From assembly GCA_016930235.1 (NCBI GenBank), contig JAFGHI010000063.1:799-64798 (forward strand): a DNA stretch of 64,000 nt, given 5' to 3'. Below are positions 22,771 through 35,850 of this stretch, one piece after another; positions within the stretch are counted from its first letter, which is position 1; each line of letters starts with the position of its first letter. A program made the position numbers and the translations under genes. This stretch comes from Candidatus Omnitrophota bacterium (GTDB taxonomy: Bacteria > Omnitrophota > Omnitrophia > Omnitrophales > Aquincolibacteriaceae). Below the pieces are notes generated by a model. It had not been told where the DNA came from, searched no databases, and saw only the letters and a list, made by a program, of their open reading frames with translations.

Positions 22771-23972
22771 GAAGAAGAGTTGTAATTACAGGAATGGGGG
22801 TTGTCTCGCCCATAGGAAATACGGCGGTAACTTTCTTAGAGAGCTTAAAGAATGGACGCTCAGGAGAAGGCGCCATTACAAGTTTTGATGCGACAAATTT
22901 CCCGGTCAAAAGAGCTTTTGAGGTTAAACAATTTGATGCAAAAAGATATAAGACCCACATGATGGATCCTTTCATCCAGTATGCCATGGGGGCGGCGACG
23001 GAGGCGGTTGAAGATGCCTGTTTTGATATGAATGCTGTAGATCATTTCCGGATCGGTTTGGCAATCGGCTCAAGCAAGGGGGGAGTTCACACCATTGATC
23101 GGTTTAAAGAGCGGTTTGAAAAACATCCGAGCGCCATTTTAGGGGCTCGGATTTACACTAATGCCGTTCCAAATTTTGCGGCTCAATGGATTGCCAGAAG
23201 ATGGGATATCGGAGGCCCGGCGAAATGTTATGTTGCAGCTTGCGCGACAGGGACAGTGGGTATTATCGAAGGTATCCGGATGGTTGAAGCCGGTGATGTG
23301 GATTATTGTCTTGCGGGGGCGAGCGATGCGTCGATTGTTCCTCTTATGCTGGCAGGGTATCGGAATATGAAGGCCTTATCGCCTGACGCGATCCGGCCCT
23401 TTGATCTTAGCCGTAACGGGTTCGTAATTGGAGAAGGAGCAGGAATTGTTTTTTTGGAAACAATTGAAAGTGCGCAAGCCCGGAATGCAGCAATTTACGG
23501 AGAAGTTGCCGGGTACGCTTATGGAAATGATTGTTATCACCCTGTTCAATTCGATCCTTGCGGAGATGCCTTGGCTCGAACGCTCGATCTTTTATTTAGG
23601 AAATGTGCGTTATCAAAAAGAGATGTTGATTATGTCAATCTCCACGGGACTGGAACAGTTGCGGGGGATCTTTATGAAGCAAGGCAGCTTCGAAAATTTT
23701 TTGGGGAAAAAACGGACAACATTTCGATGAGTGCGACAAAATCTATGACAGGGCACATGTTGGGAGCGTCGGGTGCTGTGGAATTGATTGCGGCCATCCT
23801 GGCCATAAAAGAGGATTTCGTTCCCCCAACGATCGGGATCGAGAAACAAGATCCGGAGTGTGACATCGATATCACTTGCCTTGGAGCAAAAGAGAGAAAA
23901 ATCAAGGCCGCTCTTTCCCTCTCAATGGGATTTGGCGGGCACATTGCGACGATTGCGATCAAGAAAATATGA
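22767..23972 (+). CDS. FabF-like beta-ketoacyl-ACP synthase
   Basis: RRVVITGMG, AACATG (catalytic Cys), RPFD, GEGAG, HGTGT, KSMTGHMLGASG, GFGG. Confidence 0.92.
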   Translation: MRRRVVITGMGVVSPIGNTAVTFLESLKNGRSGEGAITSFDATNFPVKRAFEVKQFDAKRYKTHMMDPFIQYAMGAATEAVEDACFDMNAVDHFRIGLAIGSSKGGVHTIDRFKERFEKHPSAILGARIYTNAVPNFAAQWIARRWDIGGPAKCYVAACATGTVGIIEGIRMVEAGDVDYCLAGASDASIVPLMLAGYRNMKALSPDAIRPFDLSRNGFVIGEGAGIVFLETIESAQARNAAIYGEVAGYAYGNDCYHPVQFDPCGDALARTLDLLFRKCALSKRDVDYVNLHGTGTVAGDLYEARQLRKFFGEKTDNISMSATKSMTGHMLGASGAVELIAAILAIKEDFVPPTIGIEKQDPECDIDITCLGAKERKIKAALSLSMGFGGHIATIAIKKI

Positions 23973-25123
23973 GTCCTCTAACCCTTCAAGAAGAACTGGC
24001 AGGAATTGCTTCCCAAGATTTATTCAGAAAGATTCGAACCCTCGAACGGATTGACAGTACGCGAGCGGTTTTAAACGGGCGCGAAATTCAACTTTTTTGC
24101 AGCAATGACTATTTGGGGCTTTCTTATCACCCCCGGATCATTGCGGTTGTTCAAAAAGCCGTTTCAATTTATGGGGTGGGGGCAGGCGCGGCGAGACTTA
24201 TTTCCGGGAGTACCAATCTTCATGAAAACTTGGAGAAGAGACTCGCGGAATTGAAACAGAAGGAAAAAGCACTGCTTTTTACAACGGGGTATCTCGCGAA
24301 TCTCGGGATTCTTACAGCGCTAGCTGGCAAAGAAGACATCATTGTGATGGATAAGTTATGTCATGCCTCGATTGTAGATGGAGCCCGGCTTTCAGGCGCT
24401 ACAATACGAGTTTTCCCTCACAAAAACTATGCGCGCCTGGAAGAAATCTTGTCCAAGGCAGTTTCGTTTAGAAGGCGGCTTGTTGTTACGGATACTGTAT
24501 TCAGCATGGATGGTGATTTGGCCGATATCCCCGAATTGATTCACCTAAAGAAAAAGTTTGATGCATTACTCATCGTAGACGACGCCCATGGCACGGGGGT
24601 TTTGGGAGCCACGGGCCAAGGAGCGACTGAGGATATCAACGGGGCAGAGGAAGTCGATATTGTGATGGGGACGCTTTCCAAAGCCTTAGGTTGTCTTGGC
24701 GGGTTTGCTTGCGGGAACAAAGCGCTTATCGATTATTTAATCAATTTTGCACGGCCTTTTATTTTTGCGACGGCATTGCCCCCCATGTGTTGTGCTGCCT
24801 CGATCGAAGCGATTAAGATTCTCAAAGAAGAGCCATTGCTACGAGAAAGATTATGGAACAATGTAAGCCTCGCTCGTGGGAACCTTAAGAATTTAGGGTT
24901 TGATTTTTCTCAATTGGCATCGCCGATTCTTCCCCTTATTGTAGGGGAAGAAAAAAGAGCTGTTGAAATATCGGAGTCTCTTCTTCAAGAAGGGTTCCTC
25001 GTTCCCGCTGTTCGAACCCCGACCGTCCCGCGGGGGAAAGCCAGGTTACGTCTTACGATTAGTGCTTCTCATACTCAACGGGATATAGAAAAGATTTGCA
25101 CTGTATTGAAAAAAACGCTTTAA
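23969..25123 (+). CDS. bioF: 8-amino-7-oxononanoate synthase
   Basis: FCSNDYLGL, HASIVDG, FSMDGD, DDAHG, GTLSKALG; ATGA overlap with the fabF-like gene. Confidence 0.95.
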   Translation: MSPLTLQEELAGIASQDLFRKIRTLERIDSTRAVLNGREIQLFCSNDYLGLSYHPRIIAVVQKAVSIYGVGAGAARLISGSTNLHENLEKRLAELKQKEKALLFTTGYLANLGILTALAGKEDIIVMDKLCHASIVDGARLSGATIRVFPHKNYARLEEILSKAVSFRRRLVVTDTVFSMDGDLADIPELIHLKKKFDALLIVDDAHGTGVLGATGQGATEDINGAEEVDIVMGTLSKALGCLGGFACGNKALIDYLINFARPFIFATALPPMCCAASIEAIKILKEEPLLRERLWNNVSLARGNLKNLGFDFSQLASPILPLIVGEEKRAVEISESLLQEGFLVPAVRTPTVPRGKARLRLTISASHTQRDIEKICTVLKKTL

Positions 25124-25219
25124 CATGGAGATATCTTGGATAATCAGACTCCAGCATGTCTTCTTATCTTTTGAAATATCATAGCCGGTAGTCTTAAAAG
25201 TAAAAGAAGGTAGCCTCTG

Positions 25220-25972
25220 ATGCGGCATATAGTTGTTTTGCCCTACTATTCGGATGAAGAAGTCCAGGTCTTCCATGAAATTGCAGACATATGGAAGGTG
25301 CTGACAAAGACGGAATGCGATTATACCTTTTTGCTTGTGTCTAGGTTTGACCGCAAACCCGATGAGGGATTACTGAGAAAATATTTAGAAATCGCACCGA
25401 CACAAAGTATTCGATCCACTACCGAGGGCCGAGGGATCAAAAAGCCTGACGTGGGATTTAAAGTTGAAGGGCCTACGGCGATGTTTTGGGATGCGGTTGA
25501 ATTTGTCAGCCAAAATTTTCCCCATGACGGAGGATTTATGCTTTGGTTTGAATATGATATGGTCCCTCTGGTCCCCGATTGGTTGGATCGGCTGGAAAAG
25601 GAGTGGAAAATCAGCCGGTACGTATTGATGGGGAAGTTGATTGACCGAGAATGGGCCAAAGAAAATATTCCTAGCCAATCAGATAATATCGTCAAACATA
25701 TCAACGGTGGGGCATGTTATTCAAAAGATTTTATTCGTAAAGTGCCTAAGCAAAAATTTAATATGGCAATGCCGTGGGATATGCAGGTTTATCGATATAT
25801 TTCTTCGTGGCATAATCGGTTCAGGCTTCGATATAAAACAACGAATTTGATCGAATTTCGCTATGCTAGTTCCTCATTGGAAAAGCCACCTTTACATGAT
25901 AGCGCTATCCTTCATGGGGTCAAGGACGGTTCAGCTCGGGCGTATATCCACGAGAAAGTCCAAAGTCCCTAA
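25220..25972 (+). CDS. Hypothetical protein, possible GT-A-like glycosyltransferase
   Basis: 250-aa ORF; WFEYDMVP, HINGGACY, PWD, LHGVKDGS spaced like GT-A motifs; no firm family. Confidence 0.5.
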   Translation: MRHIVVLPYYSDEEVQVFHEIADIWKVLTKTECDYTFLLVSRFDRKPDEGLLRKYLEIAPTQSIRSTTEGRGIKKPDVGFKVEGPTAMFWDAVEFVSQNFPHDGGFMLWFEYDMVPLVPDWLDRLEKEWKISRYVLMGKLIDREWAKENIPSQSDNIVKHINGGACYSKDFIRKVPKQKFNMAMPWDMQVYRYISSWHNRFRLRYKTTNLIEFRYASSSLEKPPLHDSAILHGVKDGSARAYIHEKVQSP

Positions 25973-26049
25973 GCCGTCACTCCTAAGCTGCGATCTTGTA
26001 GGTTCCGAGGAGATGCTGTAAGATACACACCTTTGGAGCCAATATCCCG

Positions 26050-26826
26050 ATGAAATTCACACAACAACGGTTAAGCCAGGTTCTCGATCGGAATCAGCAA
26101 CGGATCGCTGCGGAAAAGAAAATTCTGGGAGTTTTGGCTATTCTCAATTTGCTGGGCCTTGCGTTTTCAGTCTCAGTTATATTTTTTTATGTCCCCAGCC
26201 TGCCCGAACTTTTTTCTCCCCCGGCTCACGCGGCAATCGCCGTATTCATGTGTATGTTTGCAGCGAATTTGCTTTTGATCTGGATGATCATTCGATCCAG
26301 GCGTGCGTGGACCGATGCTGCGAAAAATATTGAATGCGATAAGCTGACAGGGGCTTTGCATTGGCGGAGTTTTCTTGAAGTTTTGGACGAAGAGGTGCGT
26401 CGGGCGGGACGTTATCGATACCCTTTAAGTTTATGTCTCTTAGATTTAGATGATTTTCAGTCGGCAAATAATAATTTTGGGACCACTCATGGGGATGAGA
26501 TCTTACAACGTTTCTCAAAATTCATGATGGGAACGGTTCGTTTTACGGATACGTTTGCGAGGTATGACCGGGATGAATTTCTTGTGCTTTTACCGCATAC
26601 CGATATCGTCAGGGCTCAGAAATTTGCTTCCCGTACTTTGATGCAGTCGATCGAGAGAATCGATAGCAGTTTCAGTGCCGGTCTGACGCTGTTTCAAGTC
26701 GGAGAGAAAAAAGAACAATTTTTAGAGAGGGCCGCCTTAGCGCTGAAGCAAGCCAAGCGGGAAGGGAAGAAAAGGATTCAATGTGTGATTGCTGAAGGAG
26801 GAATGCAAACGGCGCTGTCGTTATAG
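26050..26826 (+). CDS. Membrane-anchored degenerate GGDEF-domain protein
   Basis: Two TM helices, DKLTG, LDLDDF, RYDRDEF in place of RYGGDEF, SFSAG, AKREGK. Confidence 0.88.
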   Translation: MKFTQQRLSQVLDRNQQRIAAEKKILGVLAILNLLGLAFSVSVIFFYVPSLPELFSPPAHAAIAVFMCMFAANLLLIWMIIRSRRAWTDAAKNIECDKLTGALHWRSFLEVLDEEVRRAGRYRYPLSLCLLDLDDFQSANNNFGTTHGDEILQRFSKFMMGTVRFTDTFARYDRDEFLVLLPHTDIVRAQKFASRTLMQSIERIDSSFSAGLTLFQVGEKKEQFLERAALALKQAKREGKKRIQCVIAEGGMQTALSL

Positions 26827-26879
26827 GCATTCTGGGGTTTCTTCACAAGGAAGTTCATTAGAAGGGTTTCCTCGAAGAG

Positions 26880-27275
26880 ATGAAGAAAAAACGAATTATT
26901 GTATTATGCACGGTTGTGGCGGCTATTATATTTATCCCCTCGATGGTTTATGCTCAAGTGGGCGGAGTGAACATCCAACACGTCGCGGCAAAACAGAGGA
27001 CGCCCAGCAAATATGTGCTAACGGCCGAGCTTGTTAATGACAGCGGAGAAGATAAGGAAGTTATTTTAAGGGGGCAGATTACCTTTTATGACAAAGCCGC
27101 CCCCAAGGGTGATTTGCCGGTGACATCTGTGAGGAAAGATGTCTCGGTTGTTTTACGAAAGTACGAAACCCGGAATTTTGAGACGTTGCTAATCATAGAA
27201 GGAACCCCGCCGGTTGGTTCTCTTCGGATGGAACCCTCGCTTCGCATCCGACGTTCTCGCGAATGGAATTATTAG
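26880..27275 (+). CDS. Hypothetical exported protein
   Basis: Signal peptide MKKKRIIVLCTVVAAIIFIPSMVYA; beta-rich mature part. Confidence 0.7.
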   Translation: MKKKRIIVLCTVVAAIIFIPSMVYAQVGGVNIQHVAAKQRTPSKYVLTAELVNDSGEDKEVILRGQITFYDKAAPKGDLPVTSVRKDVSVVLRKYETRNFETLLIIEGTPPVGSLRMEPSLRIRRSREWNY

Positions 27276-27309
27276 ATTTCCCAAATAGGAGTAAGGGGAA
27301 TAAAAAAAG

Positions 27310-29449
<2,140 letters not shown>

Positions 29450-29505: not shown

Positions 29506-30609
29506 TTGGAATATCCTATGGGGAAAAAGAAAATTCTTGTTGCAATGAGTGGGGGGGTCGACAGCTCTGTCACCGCAGCGTTGCTTAAATACGATGGACA
29601 CGAAGTGAGCGGCGCGACCATGCGGACTTGGTCACTCGAAAAATGCGCCCTTGGACAAAAACAGGGGTGTTGCGGTATCGGCGGCGTTCAAGACGCTAGA
29701 GAAGTTGCTGACCGATTGGGCATTTCTCATTGGGTTTTCAATTTTGAGGATGAATTTAAGAATCAAGTGATGGACGACTTTGCTGAAGAATATCGGGAAG
29801 GAAGAACCCCCAATCCTTGCATTTCTTGTAATGAGCGTATTAAATTCAAACTTTTTCTTACTCGCGCTCGACAATTGGGTTTCGAGGCTATTGCCACAGG
29901 ACATTATGCGCAAGTCGACTATAGTCATCAAAGGCAGTCGTACTTTATTCGCGAGGGACGAGATGCGAGTAAGGATCAGTCCTACGTTTTGTATTCGTTG
30001 GATCAAGAGATTTTAAGCCATTTAGTCCTCCCGATAGGAAAATTTACTAAGAAAGAGATTCGCGCTACGGCCAAGACATGGAATCTCCCAGTTTGGACAA
30101 AGCCGGATTCACAGGAAATTTGCTTTGTCCCGGATCAAGATTATGCAAGATTTTTGATGGAGGAGTATGGGATCGCGTCATCCAAGAAAGGAGTGATCCG
30201 GACGAAAGACGGGAAGGTTGTTGGAGAACATGACGGGTATTTTCGTTTTACACGCGGCCAACGCCGGGGTCTGAGAGTTCCTTTTGGTCAAAGAATCTAT
30301 GTCGTGGAGACAAATCCTGAGACGAATGAGGTCATTGTTGGGACCAAACAGGAGGTTCTGAATCAAGTGTGCCTTGTCTCTCAAGTGAAATGGTTTTTAA
30401 GGCCGGATTTTGACAAAGAGGTCCGCGCTCATGTTAAAATACGGTATTTACATTCGAAAGCCCTTGCATCTTTGAACGATGCGGGAAATGGCTCTGTTCG
30501 GGTAGTCTTTGACAAACCTCAAGAAGCTATCACAAAAGGGCAAAGCGCTGTTTTTTATGAAGACGATCAGGTTATCGGAGGAGGGCGGATTGAGGAATTT
30601 TGGGATTAG
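29506..30609 (+). CDS. mnmA: tRNA 2-thiouridylase MnmA
   Basis: AMSGGVDSS, TPNPCISCN, ATGHY, KDQSY, DSQEICF, GQRRGL. Confidence 0.97.
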   Translation: MEYPMGKKKILVAMSGGVDSSVTAALLKYDGHEVSGATMRTWSLEKCALGQKQGCCGIGGVQDAREVADRLGISHWVFNFEDEFKNQVMDDFAEEYREGRTPNPCISCNERIKFKLFLTRARQLGFEAIATGHYAQVDYSHQRQSYFIREGRDASKDQSYVLYSLDQEILSHLVLPIGKFTKKEIRATAKTWNLPVWTKPDSQEICFVPDQDYARFLMEEYGIASSKKGVIRTKDGKVVGEHDGYFRFTRGQRRGLRVPFGQRIYVVETNPETNEVIVGTKQEVLNQVCLVSQVKWFLRPDFDKEVRAHVKIRYLHSKALASLNDAGNGSVRVVFDKPQEAITKGQSAVFYEDDQVIGGGRIEEFWD

Positions 30610-30626: not shown

Positions 30627-31997
30627 ATGAGATACGGCATATGCCTTGAAGGTAAAAAAGAAGCAAGTTTAATTTCTTGGGCCATTGGGCGAATTTCTCT
30701 TGCCGAGCGGGTTAGAATTCCATTAACCAATAGCTTGCGAGAACGGGTTGAGCCTATGATTGAGATTGGAGAAGATGTTGGACTCGGCCAAAAGATAGCT
30801 GTGCCTGCCTCTGTGGATTCCGTTTCTGTTCATGCCAGCATTTCGGGAAGAATTACGGATATCAGGGACTTTCCTTATCCCTTAGGTGGGATGAGGACGG
30901 CTATAGAGATCACTGCTCATGAGGAAAACAGAAGAGAATTTTATCAACCCATAGAAAGAGAAGATTGGAACAATCTCTCCCGAGAAGAGATCCTTAAGAT
31001 TTGTCAGGAATTGGGGCTTGTGGATCTTGTCCCGGAGATGCATCCGCTTCATAAAAAAATTCTCAAAGTCGGAGAAAAGAGTTCATTTTTGATCATCAAT
31101 GCATGCGAGTCGGAACCTTATATTACAACCAATCACGCCTTATTGATGTCTCATCCCGTTGAGGTTTTAAAGGGGGCAGAGATTTTAAGAAAAACATTGG
31201 GCGCTGAGCGTGTTTTGCTGGCATTGGAAGATCATCAATTAGAAGTGGCTGAGCTGATAAAAAGTAAAATTTATTTCTTGAGGTGGAAAAATTACGAAGT
31301 TAAATTATTTCGAGCAAGGTATCCTCAAGGCAACCCGTCAATTTTAGCATCGGATATTTTAAAGGCAAAATTTGAAGGATCCGGAAAGTTTGCGGAGATT
31401 GAGGCGCCTGTTTTTGATGCGGCGACTCTCTATGCTTTATATGAAGCCGTTGTTTATCAAAAACCCTTGATAGAAAGGCCTGTGACGATTGGGGGAGGAT
31501 GTACGGTCGAATCTCGAAATGTATGGCTTCCTATCGGGGCATCGTTCCAAGATGTATTAAGAAAGTGCCGAGGCCTTCTTCGAGAACCCGGGAAGTTATT
31601 AATGGGGGGGCCGATGAGAGGGTTTGCTCAACAGTCTTATGAGGTTCCTGTTCTCAAGGGAACACAAGCGATTCTTGCGCTTCCTCGAGAAGTCGTTAAA
31701 AAGGGGAAAGAAGGCCCATGTATTCGCTGCAACCGCTGTGTGGAAGCCTGTCCGGTTGAGATATCGCCCGTGCTGGTGGCTACAGCATCAGAATTTGGGG
31801 ATTTCGATCTTGCCAGGACTTATGGCGCAGAACAATGTATCGAATGCGGCAACTGCAGTTATATTTGTCCGGCCAAACGCCCCATGTTGGACTGGATACG
31901 CGCGGCAAAGCAGGATGCGATTATCCTTGAAGAGGATTTTGTTGATATCCACCAGAATCAAGAGCAAGATCTATTATCCGGCGCAAAAATCAGGTGA
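30627..31997 (+). CDS. rnfC: RnfC-like protein (divergent)
   Basis: HASISG, ESEPY, YPQG, GGPMRG, two ferredoxin motifs CIRCNRCVEACP and CIECGNCSYICP; Gly-rich flavin/NADH motif missing. Confidence 0.85.
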   Translation: MRYGICLEGKKEASLISWAIGRISLAERVRIPLTNSLRERVEPMIEIGEDVGLGQKIAVPASVDSVSVHASISGRITDIRDFPYPLGGMRTAIEITAHEENRREFYQPIEREDWNNLSREEILKICQELGLVDLVPEMHPLHKKILKVGEKSSFLIINACESEPYITTNHALLMSHPVEVLKGAEILRKTLGAERVLLALEDHQLEVAELIKSKIYFLRWKNYEVKLFRARYPQGNPSILASDILKAKFEGSGKFAEIEAPVFDAATLYALYEAVVYQKPLIERPVTIGGGCTVESRNVWLPIGASFQDVLRKCRGLLREPGKLLMGGPMRGFAQQSYEVPVLKGTQAILALPREVVKKGKEGPCIRCNRCVEACPVEISPVLVATASEFGDFDLARTYGAEQCIECGNCSYICPAKRPMLDWIRAAKQDAIILEEDFVDIHQNQEQDLLSGAKIR

Positions 31998-32029
31998 TCA
32001 AACTAGGATATCCTTAAATTCATAGTCGC

Positions 32030-32956
32030 ATGAGAGTAAAAACTCAGTTACCCCCGCATATTTCAGCAAGTTCTTCTGTCCCTCAAATCGTGTGGAAAAT
32101 CGTTGCAGCGCTCTTCCCGCTTATCGGAGTTTCCCTTTGGTTTTATCAGTGGGATGCGGTACGCGTCTTCGCGTTTTCAGTTTTAGGAAGTTTAACGGCA
32201 GAATTTTTATGCACTTTTTTATGGAAAGGGAAACTGACTTTGTATGATGGCAGCACGATTCTGACGTCGCTTTTGCTTGCCTTGATGTTACCGCCCACTC
32301 TTCCGGCTTGGATGATTATTTTAGGAAGTTTTTTTGCTGTGTTCTTCGGGAAGGAAGTTTTTGGGGGTTTGGGGCATATGCCTTTTCACCCAGCGATTGT
32401 CGGGCGAGTTTTCCTGCAAGTGACGTTTCCAGTTTCGATGTCTTTTACGCTTCAACCTTTGGAAGGCTTAAGTCGCCCCGCTCCCTTTCTATGGATGAAG
32501 GAGGAAATTTATTTAAATATGCCGCCTTTGCCGGGTTTACTCTTGGGGAATTATCCGGGGACATTAGGAGAAACATGTATCGTTGCCATTTTAGTTGGCG
32601 GTTTGATTCTCTTTTGGCAGCGGCTTATTTATTGGGAAGTCCCAGTCTTGTTTGTTCTGACAGTTTCTTTGATCTCCTGGGGGATGGGCCTTCATCCTTG
32701 GGAGAGCGTTCTTGTCGGAGGAATTATCTTTGTGGCTTGTTTTATCATTACAGATCCCGTGACAACACCATTAACACGTGAAGGGAACCGTGTTTTTTCG
32801 GTTCTTGCGGGTGTTTTAGTTTGTGTGCTTCGAAAATGGACTTCTTCTCTCGAGGGAATTGGCTTTGCGATTCTGATGGCGAATGCCCTAACGCCATGGT
32901 TGGATCAATGGATAAGACCCCGAGGGACACGTTCGAATGAGCGAGGGAAAAGATAA
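32030..32956 (+). CDS. rnfD: RnfD-like membrane protein (divergent)
   Basis: PHI, DGS, KEVFGGLG, GTLGET, TDPVTTP; FMN-Thr motif not seen. Confidence 0.87.
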   Translation: MRVKTQLPPHISASSSVPQIVWKIVAALFPLIGVSLWFYQWDAVRVFAFSVLGSLTAEFLCTFLWKGKLTLYDGSTILTSLLLALMLPPTLPAWMIILGSFFAVFFGKEVFGGLGHMPFHPAIVGRVFLQVTFPVSMSFTLQPLEGLSRPAPFLWMKEEIYLNMPPLPGLLLGNYPGTLGETCIVAILVGGLILFWQRLIYWEVPVLFVLTVSLISWGMGLHPWESVLVGGIIFVACFIITDPVTTPLTREGNRVFSVLAGVLVCVLRKWTSSLEGIGFAILMANALTPWLDQWIRPRGTRSNERGKR

Positions 32957-32959
32957 AAG

Positions 32960-33646
32960 ATGAAATTTCAACAAAAGCAAGATTCAACAAAACGAGAATT
33001 TTTCTGGAAAGAATTTGCCCGCGCTCTTTTTTTTCTAATTTTTATAGGGGGATTAATCGCAGCAGTTTTATTTTCAAAAACGAAGACAAAAAGGATGGCT
33101 GGGGATAAAAGGCCAGATACCGCCGCTTATCATTTCGAAGAAATTTTACCGCGGTTTGATAACCGACCAAGAGAGACCCCCATTTATTTAGATGGAAAAA
33201 CAATTTATCCTGTTTTCCGATTAGAATCCCAAGAAAAAGTTGTCTTGACGGAAGGGGAAGTGAATGAAACGCGAGTTGTTACAACGATCCGCGAGCTTGT
33301 CGGCATTGCTTTTGAGATCAGCGCAAAAGGGTATCGAGATGATCTCCGGTTGTTTTTAGGACTTGATATGGAGGGGAAAATAACAGGAATTCAATGGTTG
33401 GAAGATCATGAGGCGCCGGCTTTTAGCCACCATATTCAGGGACAGAAGGAGTTCTTTAGTTCATTTCTTGGCATGACGAAAGAGGAATTGTTGAGAAAGG
33501 ATAGGAAGGAAATCATGACGGCCAGTAATCAAGTTGCGATTATAGCAAAAGGAATTGCTCAAGAGTTGTTAGCCTCAATAGATTTCTTCGAAAAGAGAAA
33601 AGAGATGATTGTCGAAAAGGCGTTTCAAGGAGCAAATTTATCGTGA
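32960..33646 (+). CDS. rnfG: RnfG-like protein (divergent)
   Basis: N-terminal TM; AKGYRDDLRLFLGLDMEGKITGI; HEAPAFS aligns with HxETPGLG; position after rnfD. Confidence 0.75.
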   Translation: MKFQQKQDSTKREFFWKEFARALFFLIFIGGLIAAVLFSKTKTKRMAGDKRPDTAAYHFEEILPRFDNRPRETPIYLDGKTIYPVFRLESQEKVVLTEGEVNETRVVTTIRELVGIAFEISAKGYRDDLRLFLGLDMEGKITGIQWLEDHEAPAFSHHIQGQKEFFSSFLGMTKEELLRKDRKEIMTASNQVAIIAKGIAQELLASIDFFEKRKEMIVEKAFQGANLS

Positions 33647-34179
33647 AATTTAAAAAGGACAATTTTTTTGCGGTTGTCATCGCGATTTTACCTGTCTTAA
33701 ATGGCGTTCTCAAGGCAGATGAATCCTTGCGCATCGCAATTTTGGTGACAGGAACGTATTGGGGGGGAATTGTTTTTTTTGGCTTATGCCAGAATGGGTT
33801 TCCTCAAAAGCTTTGGCGCCTAGGATTGATAGGATGGCTCGCTGCGTGCGCCCAAATTGCCTATTATCTTCTTGGACAATCGCCCGTTTGGGTCTTAAGC
33901 GTTCTTCTTTTGTTTCCACCCTCATGGTTCTGCTATGTTGGTGAAGAAACTGCCCAGGGGGATTTTAAGGGGTTGGTCTCTCAGGGGGTCACAAGAGGAA
34001 TCGGGTTTTTCATATTAGTATGTTATCTGGGTATTTTTCAGGAAATCTTCAGGGAACGGTTGCTGTTTTGGAGTTTTCAAGGATCGGTTGGAGCTTTTTT
34101 GCTTTTAGCTTCGGTTGCTTTTGTTTGGCAGAATCAACCGAGAAAGGTTAAGACAGAAAAGGAGCATGGGGCAATATGA
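33643..34179 (+). CDS. RnfE-like membrane protein (highly divergent)
   Basis: Hydrophobic; GIGFFILVCYLGIFQEIF and GAFLLLA resemble the RnfE C-terminal half; synteny. Confidence 0.6.
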   Translation: MKFKKDNFFAVVIAILPVLNGVLKADESLRIAILVTGTYWGGIVFFGLCQNGFPQKLWRLGLIGWLAACAQIAYYLLGQSPVWVLSVLLLFPPSWFCYVGEETAQGDFKGLVSQGVTRGIGFFILVCYLGIFQEIFRERLLFWSFQGSVGAFLLLASVAFVWQNQPRKVKTEKEHGAI

Positions 34180-34697
34180 TCAACGCGTGGATTTTTTTGG
34201 CCGCTTCTCTTGCAACTCTTTATATTTTTGAGGAGCCTTTGGATCAGACGAAGCGGAAAAAGTGGGGGAAAAAGGAGGGAAAATATTTTTTTGCCGAGCA
34301 TGTTGAAATTTTTGCGGCAGTGCTTTTCCTTTTATTCATTAATTTTGTAGGCAAGACAACCGAAACTCCGAGCCCTTATGGGCAAGAGGGGGGCATTCTC
34401 TTTGCGATGCTTTTTGCTTATCTTTATGCGATTTTAAGAAACCGTTCGAGAGGTTTTTTTGTCGCGGTTTTGGTTCTCGCAATGGTTATCCCTTCGGCGT
34501 TGAAGAGCGAAATTTTCCTTACGCAAGCTGTCTTTGCCCTTCTTTGCGTTTTTGGCGTGAGCCTTTTTCGATTTTTTCTCTATGCGCTTGGAATGCGATT
34601 GGAATATTCAAAGATTCCAAGCCCTATGAGTGGGTTGCCTGTTTATTTTGTTACGGTTGCTATTCTTTGTTTGGCTTTGCTTGGGATAGGGCAATGA
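34176..34697 (+). CDS. RnfA-like membrane protein (highly divergent)
   Basis: C-terminus RLEYSKIPSPMSGLPVYFVTVAILCLALLGIG matches the RnfA ending; synteny. Confidence 0.65.
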   Translation: MINAWIFLAASLATLYIFEEPLDQTKRKKWGKKEGKYFFAEHVEIFAAVLFLLFINFVGKTTETPSPYGQEGGILFAMLFAYLYAILRNRSRGFFVAVLVLAMVIPSALKSEIFLTQAVFALLCVFGVSLFRFFLYALGMRLEYSKIPSPMSGLPVYFVTVAILCLALLGIGQ

Positions 34698-34776: not shown

Positions 34777-35850
34777 ATGGCTATCGAGGCAATTTTAAAT
34801 ACTGCGATTGAAAGAGAAGCATCGGATGTACATCTTACCATCGGTCGTCCATGGACAATCCGTGTGGCGGGAGATCTCATTTCTGTTGGCAAAGAATTGC
34901 TGGAACCGGAAGATACGGAAGCTTTCGCTCGCGAGATTACAACAGAAGAGCAAAGAAAAAAAATAGAAGAGGTGGGAGGTATCGATTTTGGCTTTACTTT
35001 TGAAGATAAAGCTCGTTTTCGTGTTTCCTGCTTCAAGCAGCGCGGTACGTATGCGATGACGCTTCGTTTGTTGCCAAGCAAGTTTTATAGTTTTGAAGAT
35101 ATTGGTTTGCCGAAACAGCTTGTGGATTTGATTTCAAGGCCACGAGGACTTATTTTAGTAACAGGGCCAACGGGTAGCGGGAAGACAACAACTTTGGCAA
35201 CGATGTTGAATTACATCAATGAAAACCTTCCAAAACACATTATTACAGCTGAGGATCCTATCGAATTTTTGCATCCGAATAAAAAAGGGATTGTAACGCA
35301 ACGGGAAGTTGGAGCAGATGTTCCGAGCTTTGCTGAGGCGGTGGTTAAAGCGCTACGCCAGGATCCGGATGTCGTTCTTATCGGTGAAATGCGGGATCTT
35401 TCCACAATGGAGGCAGCCATTAGGGCGGCAGAAACAGGACACCTGGTTTTTTCGACGCTTCACACAACGGGAGCAGCGCGTACAGTTGACCGGATTATTG
35501 ATGTCTTTCCCTCTTATCAACAAACGCAGATAAGAATCCAATTGTCCGCAACAATTGCTGCAGTGATTTCCCAAACATTGCTACCCAAATTAGACGGGAA
35601 AGGGCGAATTGCGGCTTTTGAGATCATGTTTGCGACACCCGCTATCCGCAATCTCATACGAGAAGGCAAAACTTATCAGGTGATATCAGAAATCCAGACG
35701 GGGATGCGATACGGTATGAGAGCTCTTGATGATCATTTAAAGGAGATTTATCAACAGGGGGTCATCGGATATGACGTCATGATTGAATCAGCGCAGGACC
35801 CCAAGGATCTTGCTCAGCGGGTAACCAAACCGGCAGCCCCGAAGAAATAG
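34777..35850 (+). CDS. pilT: Type IV pilus retraction ATPase PilT
   Basis: ASDVHL, GPTGSGKTTT, EDPIE, LRQDPD, AETGHLVFSTLHT, AIRNLIRE. Confidence 0.95.
   Translation: MAIEAILNTAIEREASDVHLTIGRPWTIRVAGDLISVGKELLEPEDTEAFAREITTEEQRKKIEEVGGIDFGFTFEDKARFRVSCFKQRGTYAMTLRLLPSKFYSFEDIGLPKQLVDLISRPRGLILVTGPTGSGKTTTLATMLNYINENLPKHIITAEDPIEFLHPNKKGIVTQREVGADVPSFAEAVVKALRQDPDVVLIGEMRDLSTMEAAIRAAETGHLVFSTLHTTGAARTVDRIIDVFPSYQQTQIRIQLSATIAAVISQTLLPKLDGKGRIAAFEIMFATPAIRNLIREGKTYQVISEIQTGMRYGMRALDDHLKEIYQQGVIGYDVMIESAQDPKDLAQRVTKPAAPKK

Follow-up and report, generated by a model that had tools for sequence, protein, structure and literature searches.

The 64-kb window analysed here (64,000 nucleotides of contig JAFGHI010000063.1, from a Candidatus Omnitrophota bacterium of the family Aquincolibacteriaceae, order Omnitrophales) belongs to a 90% complete genome labelled G000, the other G and L numbers below being genome and locus labels of the comparison set. 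It contains five co-oriented, unbroken open reading frames (ORFs) in rnfCDGEA order, which form a stripped version of the Rnf operon. The first two junctions leave 32 and 3 bases between genes, the last two are 4-base overlaps, and the G+C content of the operon resembles that of the remaining window:

rnfC, 30627-31997, + strand: 456 aa; ATG start with AAAGGA upstream, further in-frame TTG at 30600; cluster motifs C365-C375 and C404-C414 intact, YPQG and GGPMxG kept
rnfD, 32030-32956, + strand: RnfD-derived membrane protein of 308 aa
rnfG-like remnant, 32960-33646, + strand: 228 aa, without flavinylation motif
rnfE-like gene, 33643-34179, + strand: membrane protein of 178 aa, both cluster cysteines gone
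rnfA-like gene, 34176-34697, + strand: membrane protein of 173 aa, both cluster cysteines gone

A sequence-only reading of this DNA had proposed five tightly spaced and intact Rnf-like genes with altered redox motifs in every subunit, both RnfC [4Fe-4S] motifs remaining and no rnfB downstream. All of this is borne out, and homology is supported for all five subunits. RnfC and RnfD pass the cut-offs of TIGR01945 (327 versus 246) and TIGR01946 (223 versus 207), respectively. The G, E and A proteins of the window fall below the NCBIfam cut-offs as single sequences, and profiles of the family match the canonical subunits with hhalign E-values of 9e-20 (G), 4e-8 (E) and 5e-13 (A), the best matches among PDB sequences being RnfE (5e-8) and RnfA (5e-14). 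The A-like protein, whose C-terminus retains an R-L-x-x-S-x-x-P-x-x-x-x-G-x-P segment, is predicted from an input of 40 stripped sequences only to adopt the six-helix RnfA fold (predicted local distance difference test score, pLDDT, of 90.5), and a fold search of this model against 48,161 chains ranks RnfA, NqrE and RnfE first to third (Z 10.4, 10.4 and 8.2; root-mean-square deviation, rmsd, 3.5-4.3 over 155-157 aligned residues). For RnfD, a model of pLDDT 90.8 was obtained from an alignment in which 21 canonical sequences were included; its fold match to RnfD reaches Z 36-38. Neither rnfB nor a second rnf or nqr operon was found in the 90% complete G000; the sequence-only reading had advised looking for a second canonical rnf operon.

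In alignments to solved subunits, the substituted segments occupy the canonical positions: GLVDLVPEMHP lies over GIVGMGGATFP in RnfC, EGLSRPAP over DGVTTATP and HMPFHPA over NIVNPA in RnfD, and HEAPAFS over HAETPGLG in RnfG. We looked for threonines carrying flavin mononucleotide (FMN) or cysteines that might rescue the lost motifs from shifted positions, and none was found. Stripped and canonical proteins were then compared by motif counts, per-genus figures taking one genome per genus and contig-end fragments being left out (G021, G042b, G042c and G075, as well as G074 in the FastTree tree and the domain-conservation comparison). The GxGGAxFP loop of RnfC, which we take to be the FMN/NADH site, is present in 0/78 stripped and 20/20 canonical proteins. 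The FMN-carrying threonine of RnfD is found in 0/39 stripped genera (A151 in the window copy) versus 21/21 canonical sequences, and the flavinylation motif of RnfG in 0/10 versus 20/21. None of 55 stripped E or 52 stripped A proteins has both cluster cysteine motifs, which all canonical E and A proteins contain (20/20 each). Across the order, rnfB occurs in two of 66 genomes, namely G083 and G005, the latter with only a fragment on a contig of 621 bases, and ApbE in ten of 66; G000 has one ApbE, together with another FMN-domain protein for it. Conservation dropped from canonical to stripped sequences in the RnfC glycine loop (0.85 to 0.41), the RnfD periplasmic linker (0.62 to 0.11), its periplasmic loop (0.81 to 0.27) and its transmembrane helices (0.61 to 0.42). 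The linker is also shorter, with 18-52 residues instead of 54-75, in 67/71 proteins, the window copy being one of the four full-length exceptions.

The term cofactor-stripped used in the sequence-only reading is only partly appropriate: the FMN motifs and the membrane cluster cysteines are indeed lost, but both RnfC [4Fe-4S] motifs and five of seven riboflavin contacts of RnfD are kept in the window. The two RnfC motifs are recognised by pattern in 75/78 proteins and one more has all eight cysteines (76/78), the other two being cut by contig ends. The ferredoxin and SLBB domains of RnfC are as conserved in stripped as in canonical proteins (0.57 versus 0.56 and 0.62 versus 0.63), and NxCE[SP]EP, YP and GGPMxG are retained. 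In G083 numbering, N161, E164, E166, P167, Y235, P236 and T270 are kept in 33-42/42 proteins. NGAECEP became NACESEP in the window copy, the cysteine being shifted by two places, and this moved cysteine is found in 36/42; the lysine of the glycine loop persists in 21/42 and the asparagine of the NVxT motif in 15/42, with replacements that are often acidic. For RnfD, the seven riboflavin-contact positions were taken from NqrB (PMC10643135, as excerpted); the window protein keeps D242, T79, G115, A122 and F238 and replaces two asparagines by M117 and H120. Across genera the glycine, phenylalanine and aspartate are kept, the last as D or E in 65/71. The RnfD termini that dock RnfC are retained, and its cytoplasmic loops remain comparatively conserved (0.92 to 0.66 and 0.81 to 0.61).

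These RnfD termini dock RnfC in solved Rnf, according to the structural literature in excerpt, and RnfC is predicted to dock still on RnfD. The modelled complex scored 0.71 versus 0.00 for the best of three controls, at a mark that 116/157 solved pairs and 2/215 mismatched pairs reach; since the pair resembles solved Rnf, this pass shows likeness and not binding. At least 90% of the contacts agree between runs, with a partner pLDDT of at least 77. The predicted interface includes RnfC 328-334 and RnfD 113-116 and 243-250; the contacts listed do not include D242.

Stripping is an order-wide inherited trait and not the decay of a single genome. An RnfC ortholog is present in 63/65 other genomes of the family, and both misses are explained by assembly gaps (bioD and polA are missing from G052 too, and the G044 contig ends after mnmA). 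The 60 family loci retrieved share the order bioA-bioD-(mnmA)-C-(insert)-D-(G)-E-A-pilT-polA-coaE; with the window included (61 loci), profiles detect D in 59, E in 50, A in 45 and G in 10, several misses being contig ends. The stripped type also occurs in other families of the order, and only C and D were detected at five loci (G072, G073, G077, G081 and G082). The retained core is thus RnfC and RnfD, the rest being variably lost. An exhaustive profile search listed 150 representatives, and none of the best 29 has the glycine loop; the named homologs are Omnitrophota. Within the same order, G083 carries the series bioA-bioD-mnmA-larE-like-rnfCDGEAB-trxA-pilT-polA-coaE with all motifs canonical, rnfB and trxA lying between rnfA and pilT (the larE and trxA labels, read from the sequence, are our assumption). 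In a FastTree tree of RnfC (63 rows), a single branch sets the stripped proteins apart, with G083 and then G149 next to them (support 0.82), and IQ-TREE on 34 rows with the motif columns removed gives the same stripped grouping (Shimodaira-Hasegawa-like approximate likelihood ratio test, SH-aLRT, 99). Together with the canonical G083 operon at the same locus, these trees indicate that the stripped operon is the native Rnf of this lineage, altered at its original site. Intermediate states exist, as G066 and G067 keep GxGG..FP with one change, and so do final ones: the block is cleanly deleted in G068, where mnmA lies 558 bases from polA, and none of it is found within 15 kb upstream of polA in G079. 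Full-text literature searches, covering main texts, listed no paper that describes this stripped form.

Selection on the stripped operon is purifying but relaxed. Ratios of nonsynonymous to synonymous substitution rates (dN/dS; Nei-Gojobori) were computed for C, D, E and A on within-genus pairs with a median dS below 1.2, most of them from one genus and not independent, in genera other than that of G000, which has no congener. They amount to 0.145 for C, 0.157 for D and 0.107 for E (61 pairs each) and 0.26 for A (59 pairs), with an operon maximum of 0.52; neighbour genes lie at 0.066-0.092, about half the operon values. One contig end excepted, no broken frame was seen in C (61 loci) or D (59 loci). 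Recent pseudogenisation is rejected on these grounds, dN/dS never being near 1 and the frames being intact. The check for purifying selection in relatives, suggested together with the idea of repurposing rather than decay, therefore supports that idea, with losses fixed across the order, intact frames and a within-genus dN/dS of 0.11-0.26.

With RnfB, the RnfA/E cysteines, the FMN threonines and the glycine loop gone, the U-shaped electron path of Rnf cannot form. Rnf variants of Acetobacterium woodii without the AE cluster, the FMN of RnfG or the riboflavin residues are inactive (PMC11889175, as excerpted); as the AE cluster and FMN-G are essential there and lost here, the stripped operon, judged from its residues, should be unable to act as a ferredoxin:NAD+ pump. 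G000 encodes a futalosine menaquinone operon, cytochrome bd, pyruvate:ferredoxin oxidoreductase and hydrogenases of the bifurcating and Hox types, and no heme-copper oxidase was found in it. Its menaquinone genes are located as follows:

futalosine operon of G000, L147:7045-12699 (G000:C1): UbiD-type decarboxylase, MqnP-like protein, UbiX, MqnA/D-family protein, MqnC, methyltransferase

This operon is near-universal in the order, where UbiA and MqnC-family proteins each occur in 64/66 genomes, the canonical G083 having neither, heme-copper oxidase in 36/66 and POR_N in 66/66. The stripped operon thus co-occurs with genes for menaquinone synthesis and for 2-oxoacid:ferredoxin oxidoreductase, and stripping coincides with the gain of futalosine menaquinone synthesis. 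In a 301-genome sample of the phylum, from whose canonical set RnfD matches between 1e-51 and 1e-67 were excluded, only one of 166 genomes with canonical RnfD has MqnC. The excerpted text of Seymour et al. (PMC10066038) takes such prenyltransferases as ubiquinone synthesis, and menaquinone fits them better; the same text assigns Rnf to acetogenic classes and describes the other classes as respiratory, the stripped form going unmentioned in that excerpt. Two membrane-associated features of G000 and its relatives may be recorded beside these: a group-4-hydrogenase-like membrane operon (L167:7318-14920, G000:C39), possibly of the Ehr type, whose large subunit gave no RxCGxC match in a pattern scan, and the canonical rnf operon of G223 (L163:9812-15154), which lies in a different gene neighbourhood.

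As a tentative reading, which we favour while considering it possible rather than probable, RnfC and RnfD may form a non-pumping conduit from ferredoxin to menaquinone. The inherited Rnf no longer has the subunit for ferredoxin input, the cysteines of the membrane cluster, the sites of covalent FMN attachment or the NADH loop. Electrons presumably donated by ferredoxin would enter the two [4Fe-4S] clusters of RnfC, pass to a predicted riboflavin in RnfD and from this flavin to a putative menaquinone acceptor, the E-, A- and G-like proteins serving as a dispensable membrane scaffold. Such a conduit would give ferredoxin from 2-oxoacid oxidation an outlet to respiration or oxygen removal. By the redox potentials, transfer from ferredoxin to menaquinone is downhill. 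The reading is favoured because the kept parts face the cytoplasm and the inner leaflet, because the distances in solved structures suit it (11.7 Å from riboflavin to the RnfC cluster in Rnf, PMC9588780; 11.6 Å from riboflavin to quinone in NqrB, PMC10643135) and because Nqr is thought to have originated as a menaquinone reductase (PMC12174285), all three sources being used in excerpt.

Several observations weigh against this conduit. The tie to menaquinone is one evolutionary transition, since kin are not independent, and it is equally explained by a respiratory switch that freed Rnf. POR_N does not discriminate, being present in canonical G083 as well. Outside the order, 18 of 19 MqnC genomes lack RnfC; G223, with canonical Rnf and MqnC, is the sole exception to the exclusion pattern. 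The two order genomes without the rnf block (G068 and G079) indicate that the module is dispensable in quinone-bearing relatives. In RnfD itself, we found no NqrB-type quinone pocket, the equivalent of G141 being V, L, A or F in aligned proteins, and no newly fixed quinone-site residue in the stripped form. The riboflavin site is only partly kept per genus (Thr 8/39, first Asn 12/39, second position N in 9 and H in 22), and RnfD is strongly diverged, with a median identity of 0.27 versus 0.49 among canonical proteins. The kept RnfD loops and the GGPMxG of RnfC lie in the predicted docking face, so that docking alone could explain their conservation. Docking of ferredoxin is a presumption of this reading, and the stripped C+D unit that arose independently in gut Clostridia, described below, is a caution that electrons may go to an acceptor other than quinone.

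Some of these features are accommodated by other explanations. RnfD might be only an anchor for a membrane-attached redox sensor or carrier, in which the RnfC clusters would serve a cytoplasmic partner through a new surface. The far better conservation of RnfC (median identity 0.41 versus 0.27 for RnfD), its family-specific invariant surface motif E-x-x-K-S-K-I-Y-F-L-K-W with the new W300 and E355, and the persistence of the operon with and without heme-copper oxidase (36/66) all fit this proposal, for which NqrA, catalytically dead and still on its membrane partner, and Rsx, an Rnf serving a regulator, are precedents (PMC12174285, in excerpt). It is nevertheless unlikely, if worth keeping in mind, since no regulator or partner gene accompanies the operon at the examined loci, part of the surface motif already exists in canonical G083, and a sensor would not require the riboflavin aspartate that is kept in 65/71. 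If the flavin-like pocket of RnfC has been rebuilt around its new cysteine, the complex might instead be a dehydrogenase of a non-NAD substrate such as a thiol, with the clusters and RnfD carrying the electrons on to quinone. The seven residues between N161 and T270 and the moved cysteine (counts above) are consistent with such a pocket; the cysteine is missing in 6/42, however, and the glycine loop, its lysine and the NVxT asparagine, which presumably hold the FMN phosphate, are degraded, often to acidic residues. D94-E95-S96-E97 of NuoF line its flavin site (PMC6560083, as excerpted), and their match to RnfC was made by eye. On balance we hold this dehydrogenase to be improbable.

A disulfide role is suggested by an insert of one to four DsbA domains (CPFC) between rnfC and rnfD in 23/60 family loci: the complex would take over from DsbB or VKOR the recycling of a multi-domain DsbA anchored in the membrane, and neither DsbB nor VKOR was found in G000 (VKOR occurs in 15/66 genomes; DsbA in 62/66 and not in G083). 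That the gene is missing from the operon in 37/60 loci, the window included, and from all examined loci of other families leads us to reject DsbA as an obligatory partner, and the lack of any conserved cysteine in D, E or A likewise rejects a thiol relay via the membrane subunits. Moreover, what RnfD has lost is its periplasmic face, the gap between C and D also receives unrelated opposite-strand inserts (four loci), and the DsbA of G000 has its own MauE/DoxX neighbour, which makes a periplasmic disulfide partnership very improbable. A return of RnfD to a transporter-like role as an RnfC-gated ion or solute channel, the function first mentioned in the sequence-only reading, is equally remote in our estimation. 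The RnfD fold does resemble Amt and urea transporters (Z about 12, rmsd 4-5, about 245 residues aligned), the linker shortened in 67/71 is the periplasmic one by which the channel is occluded (PMC9588780, in excerpt), and the aspartate suggested to bind Na+ persists. Of the other residues proposed for the ion path, however, most are gone (Glu kept in 5/39; Asn mostly Leu), no new pore residue is fixed, relaxation is seen in the transmembrane helices (0.61 to 0.42), and E and A are undetected at five loci, so that the channel claim is weak and unsupported. As for a slow decay that removes subunits one by one, it would account for the stepwise loss of B, G and then E/A, the absence of the whole block in G068 and G079, a dN/dS about twice that of the neighbours and the longer branches. 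It is already largely refuted for C and D by a dN/dS of 0.11-0.26 (maximum 0.52), the presence of RnfC in 63/65 family genomes with both misses in assembly gaps, the unbroken C and D frames and the eight cysteines in 76/78, and we give it hardly any credit.

Comparison with known systems, for which the cited papers were again used in excerpt, sets the stripped operon beside several relatives. With Rnf itself (RnfABCDGE; PDB 7ZC6, 9ERI and 8AHX), the stripped operon shares descent, the CDGEA order, the D and A folds, the two RnfC [4Fe-4S] motifs and the predicted C-D interface, but it has no RnfB, RnfA/E cysteines, FMN threonines or glycine loop, has mostly lost RnfG and can dispense with E and A. 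Na+-NQR (NqrABCDEF) is another Rnf descendant that lost RnfB and the NAD/FMN site of RnfC (PMC4014512, PMC12174285), and its RnfD homolog reduces quinone from riboflavin (PMC10643135). It is a mirror image of the present case: Nqr kept the pumping core with a cluster-free NqrA, whereas the Omnitrophota operon retains the clusters and has a stripped core. The window RnfC scores 327 on TIGR01945 versus 28-42 on NqrA models, no NqrF-like ORF was found in the operon or at the examined loci, and the window RnfD has an N-terminus of RnfD length without NqrB-type amphipathic helices. The partial NQR/RNF-like systems of Meheust et al. (PMC8238504) are likewise half an Rnf on an RnfD/NqrB membrane domain with a proposed one-way electron flow, but they fuse RnfD to an NqrF-like NAD domain, use ApbE flavinylation and send electrons outward, while the present system has an RnfC partner and has lost flavinylation; the 308-aa window RnfD matches PF03116 only, without PF00175 fusion or flavinylation threonine. 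PrdC is an RnfC homolog recruited to another job, electron transfer to proline reductase (PMC3091704), yet it keeps the NADH and FMN sites and a C-terminal CxxU/C, and the window protein scores 118 against a PrdC cut-off of 490.

Among the lower-ranked representatives of the profile search, some lack the loop and lie outside the Omnitrophota clade. A scan seeded with one of these yielded 80 loci, two of which (L187:2408-5970 and L189:6902-10494, gut Clostridia records) hold a stand-alone rnfC-rnfD pair with a dismantled glycine loop, intact cluster motifs and RnfD riboflavin residues, followed by an ORF of 274-278 aa without Pfam match; no E, A or B gene was found at either locus. This unit is independent of the Omnitrophota clade and shows that C+D recurs as a unit. 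Most gut Clostridia are not known to contain quinones. A bolder proposition is that the two RnfC clusters and RnfD form a self-standing, previously undescribed 'half-Rnf', a minimal membrane redox module that serves this Omnitrophota order as a ferredoxin:menaquinone oxidoreductase, arose as the mirror image of Nqr upon quinone gain by an anaerobic lineage, and evolved at least twice in view of the clostridial pair. We regard it as doubtful; if correct, it would represent a second route, opposite to that of Nqr, for rebuilding the ancient Rnf machine upon quinone arrival. Whatever its function, what these genomes carry under the label 'Rnf' is probably another enzyme, and because RnfC and the window RnfD pass the NCBI Rnf cut-offs, metabolic models can credit these bacteria, which are widespread and uncultured, with an ion pump that they should lack. 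The graded series at one fixed locus, from canonical to partial to C+D alone to deletion, amounts to a dissection of Rnf by nature. With only two subunits, the C+D form is compact enough for expression and for an assay of quinone reduction by the cluster-riboflavin half alone.

The operon is flanked by two genes that the sequence-only reading had considered as possible functional partners:

mnmA, 29506-30609, + strand: upstream neighbour, ancestral adjacency, outside the system
pilT-type ATPase gene, 34777-35850, + strand: downstream neighbour, ancestral adjacency

The canonical G083 operon has the same neighbours, so that both adjacencies predate stripping. Besides, bioD directly precedes rnfC without mnmA in 26/60 family loci, and pilT is absent between the operon and polA in four. 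A functional link to either gene is therefore rejected. Regarding expression, promoter and terminator scans gave counts at chance level (29 versus 25.0 and 23 versus 21.8), and three RNA assemblies of the same study leave the operon uncovered, with short unrelated pieces only, which speaks neither for nor against its expression.

A few further observations concern the variable parts of the locus. Inserted DsbA genes, exemplified by L054:8398-9717 and L064:5575-8469 and present at 21 further loci, some with a SurA-like N-terminal part, occur mostly in genomes having heme-copper oxidase. The DsbA of G000 lies elsewhere (L120:7550-8917, G000:C29) as a single-domain protein (CPAC) with a MauE/DoxX protein encoded directly behind it; the two are candidates for an alternative pair in oxidative folding. 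In four genomes (L070:1501-8691, L062, L086 and L087), rnfC and rnfD are separated by an opposite-strand block of seven genes, whose content includes an ATP-binding cassette (ABC) ATPase, a permease and LolA-like, ThiF, nitroreductase and PilZ-FeeM proteins. Up to three rnfC copies sit on short contigs of G042 (L008 and L093), one of them near-identical in the tree to that of G021, which possibly reflects a mixed bin. Upstream, the biotin genes are a constant component of the locus across the order, and in the window (23876-29449) the series bioF-bioA-bioD is interrupted by two unknown ORFs and a gene for a small GGDEF protein.

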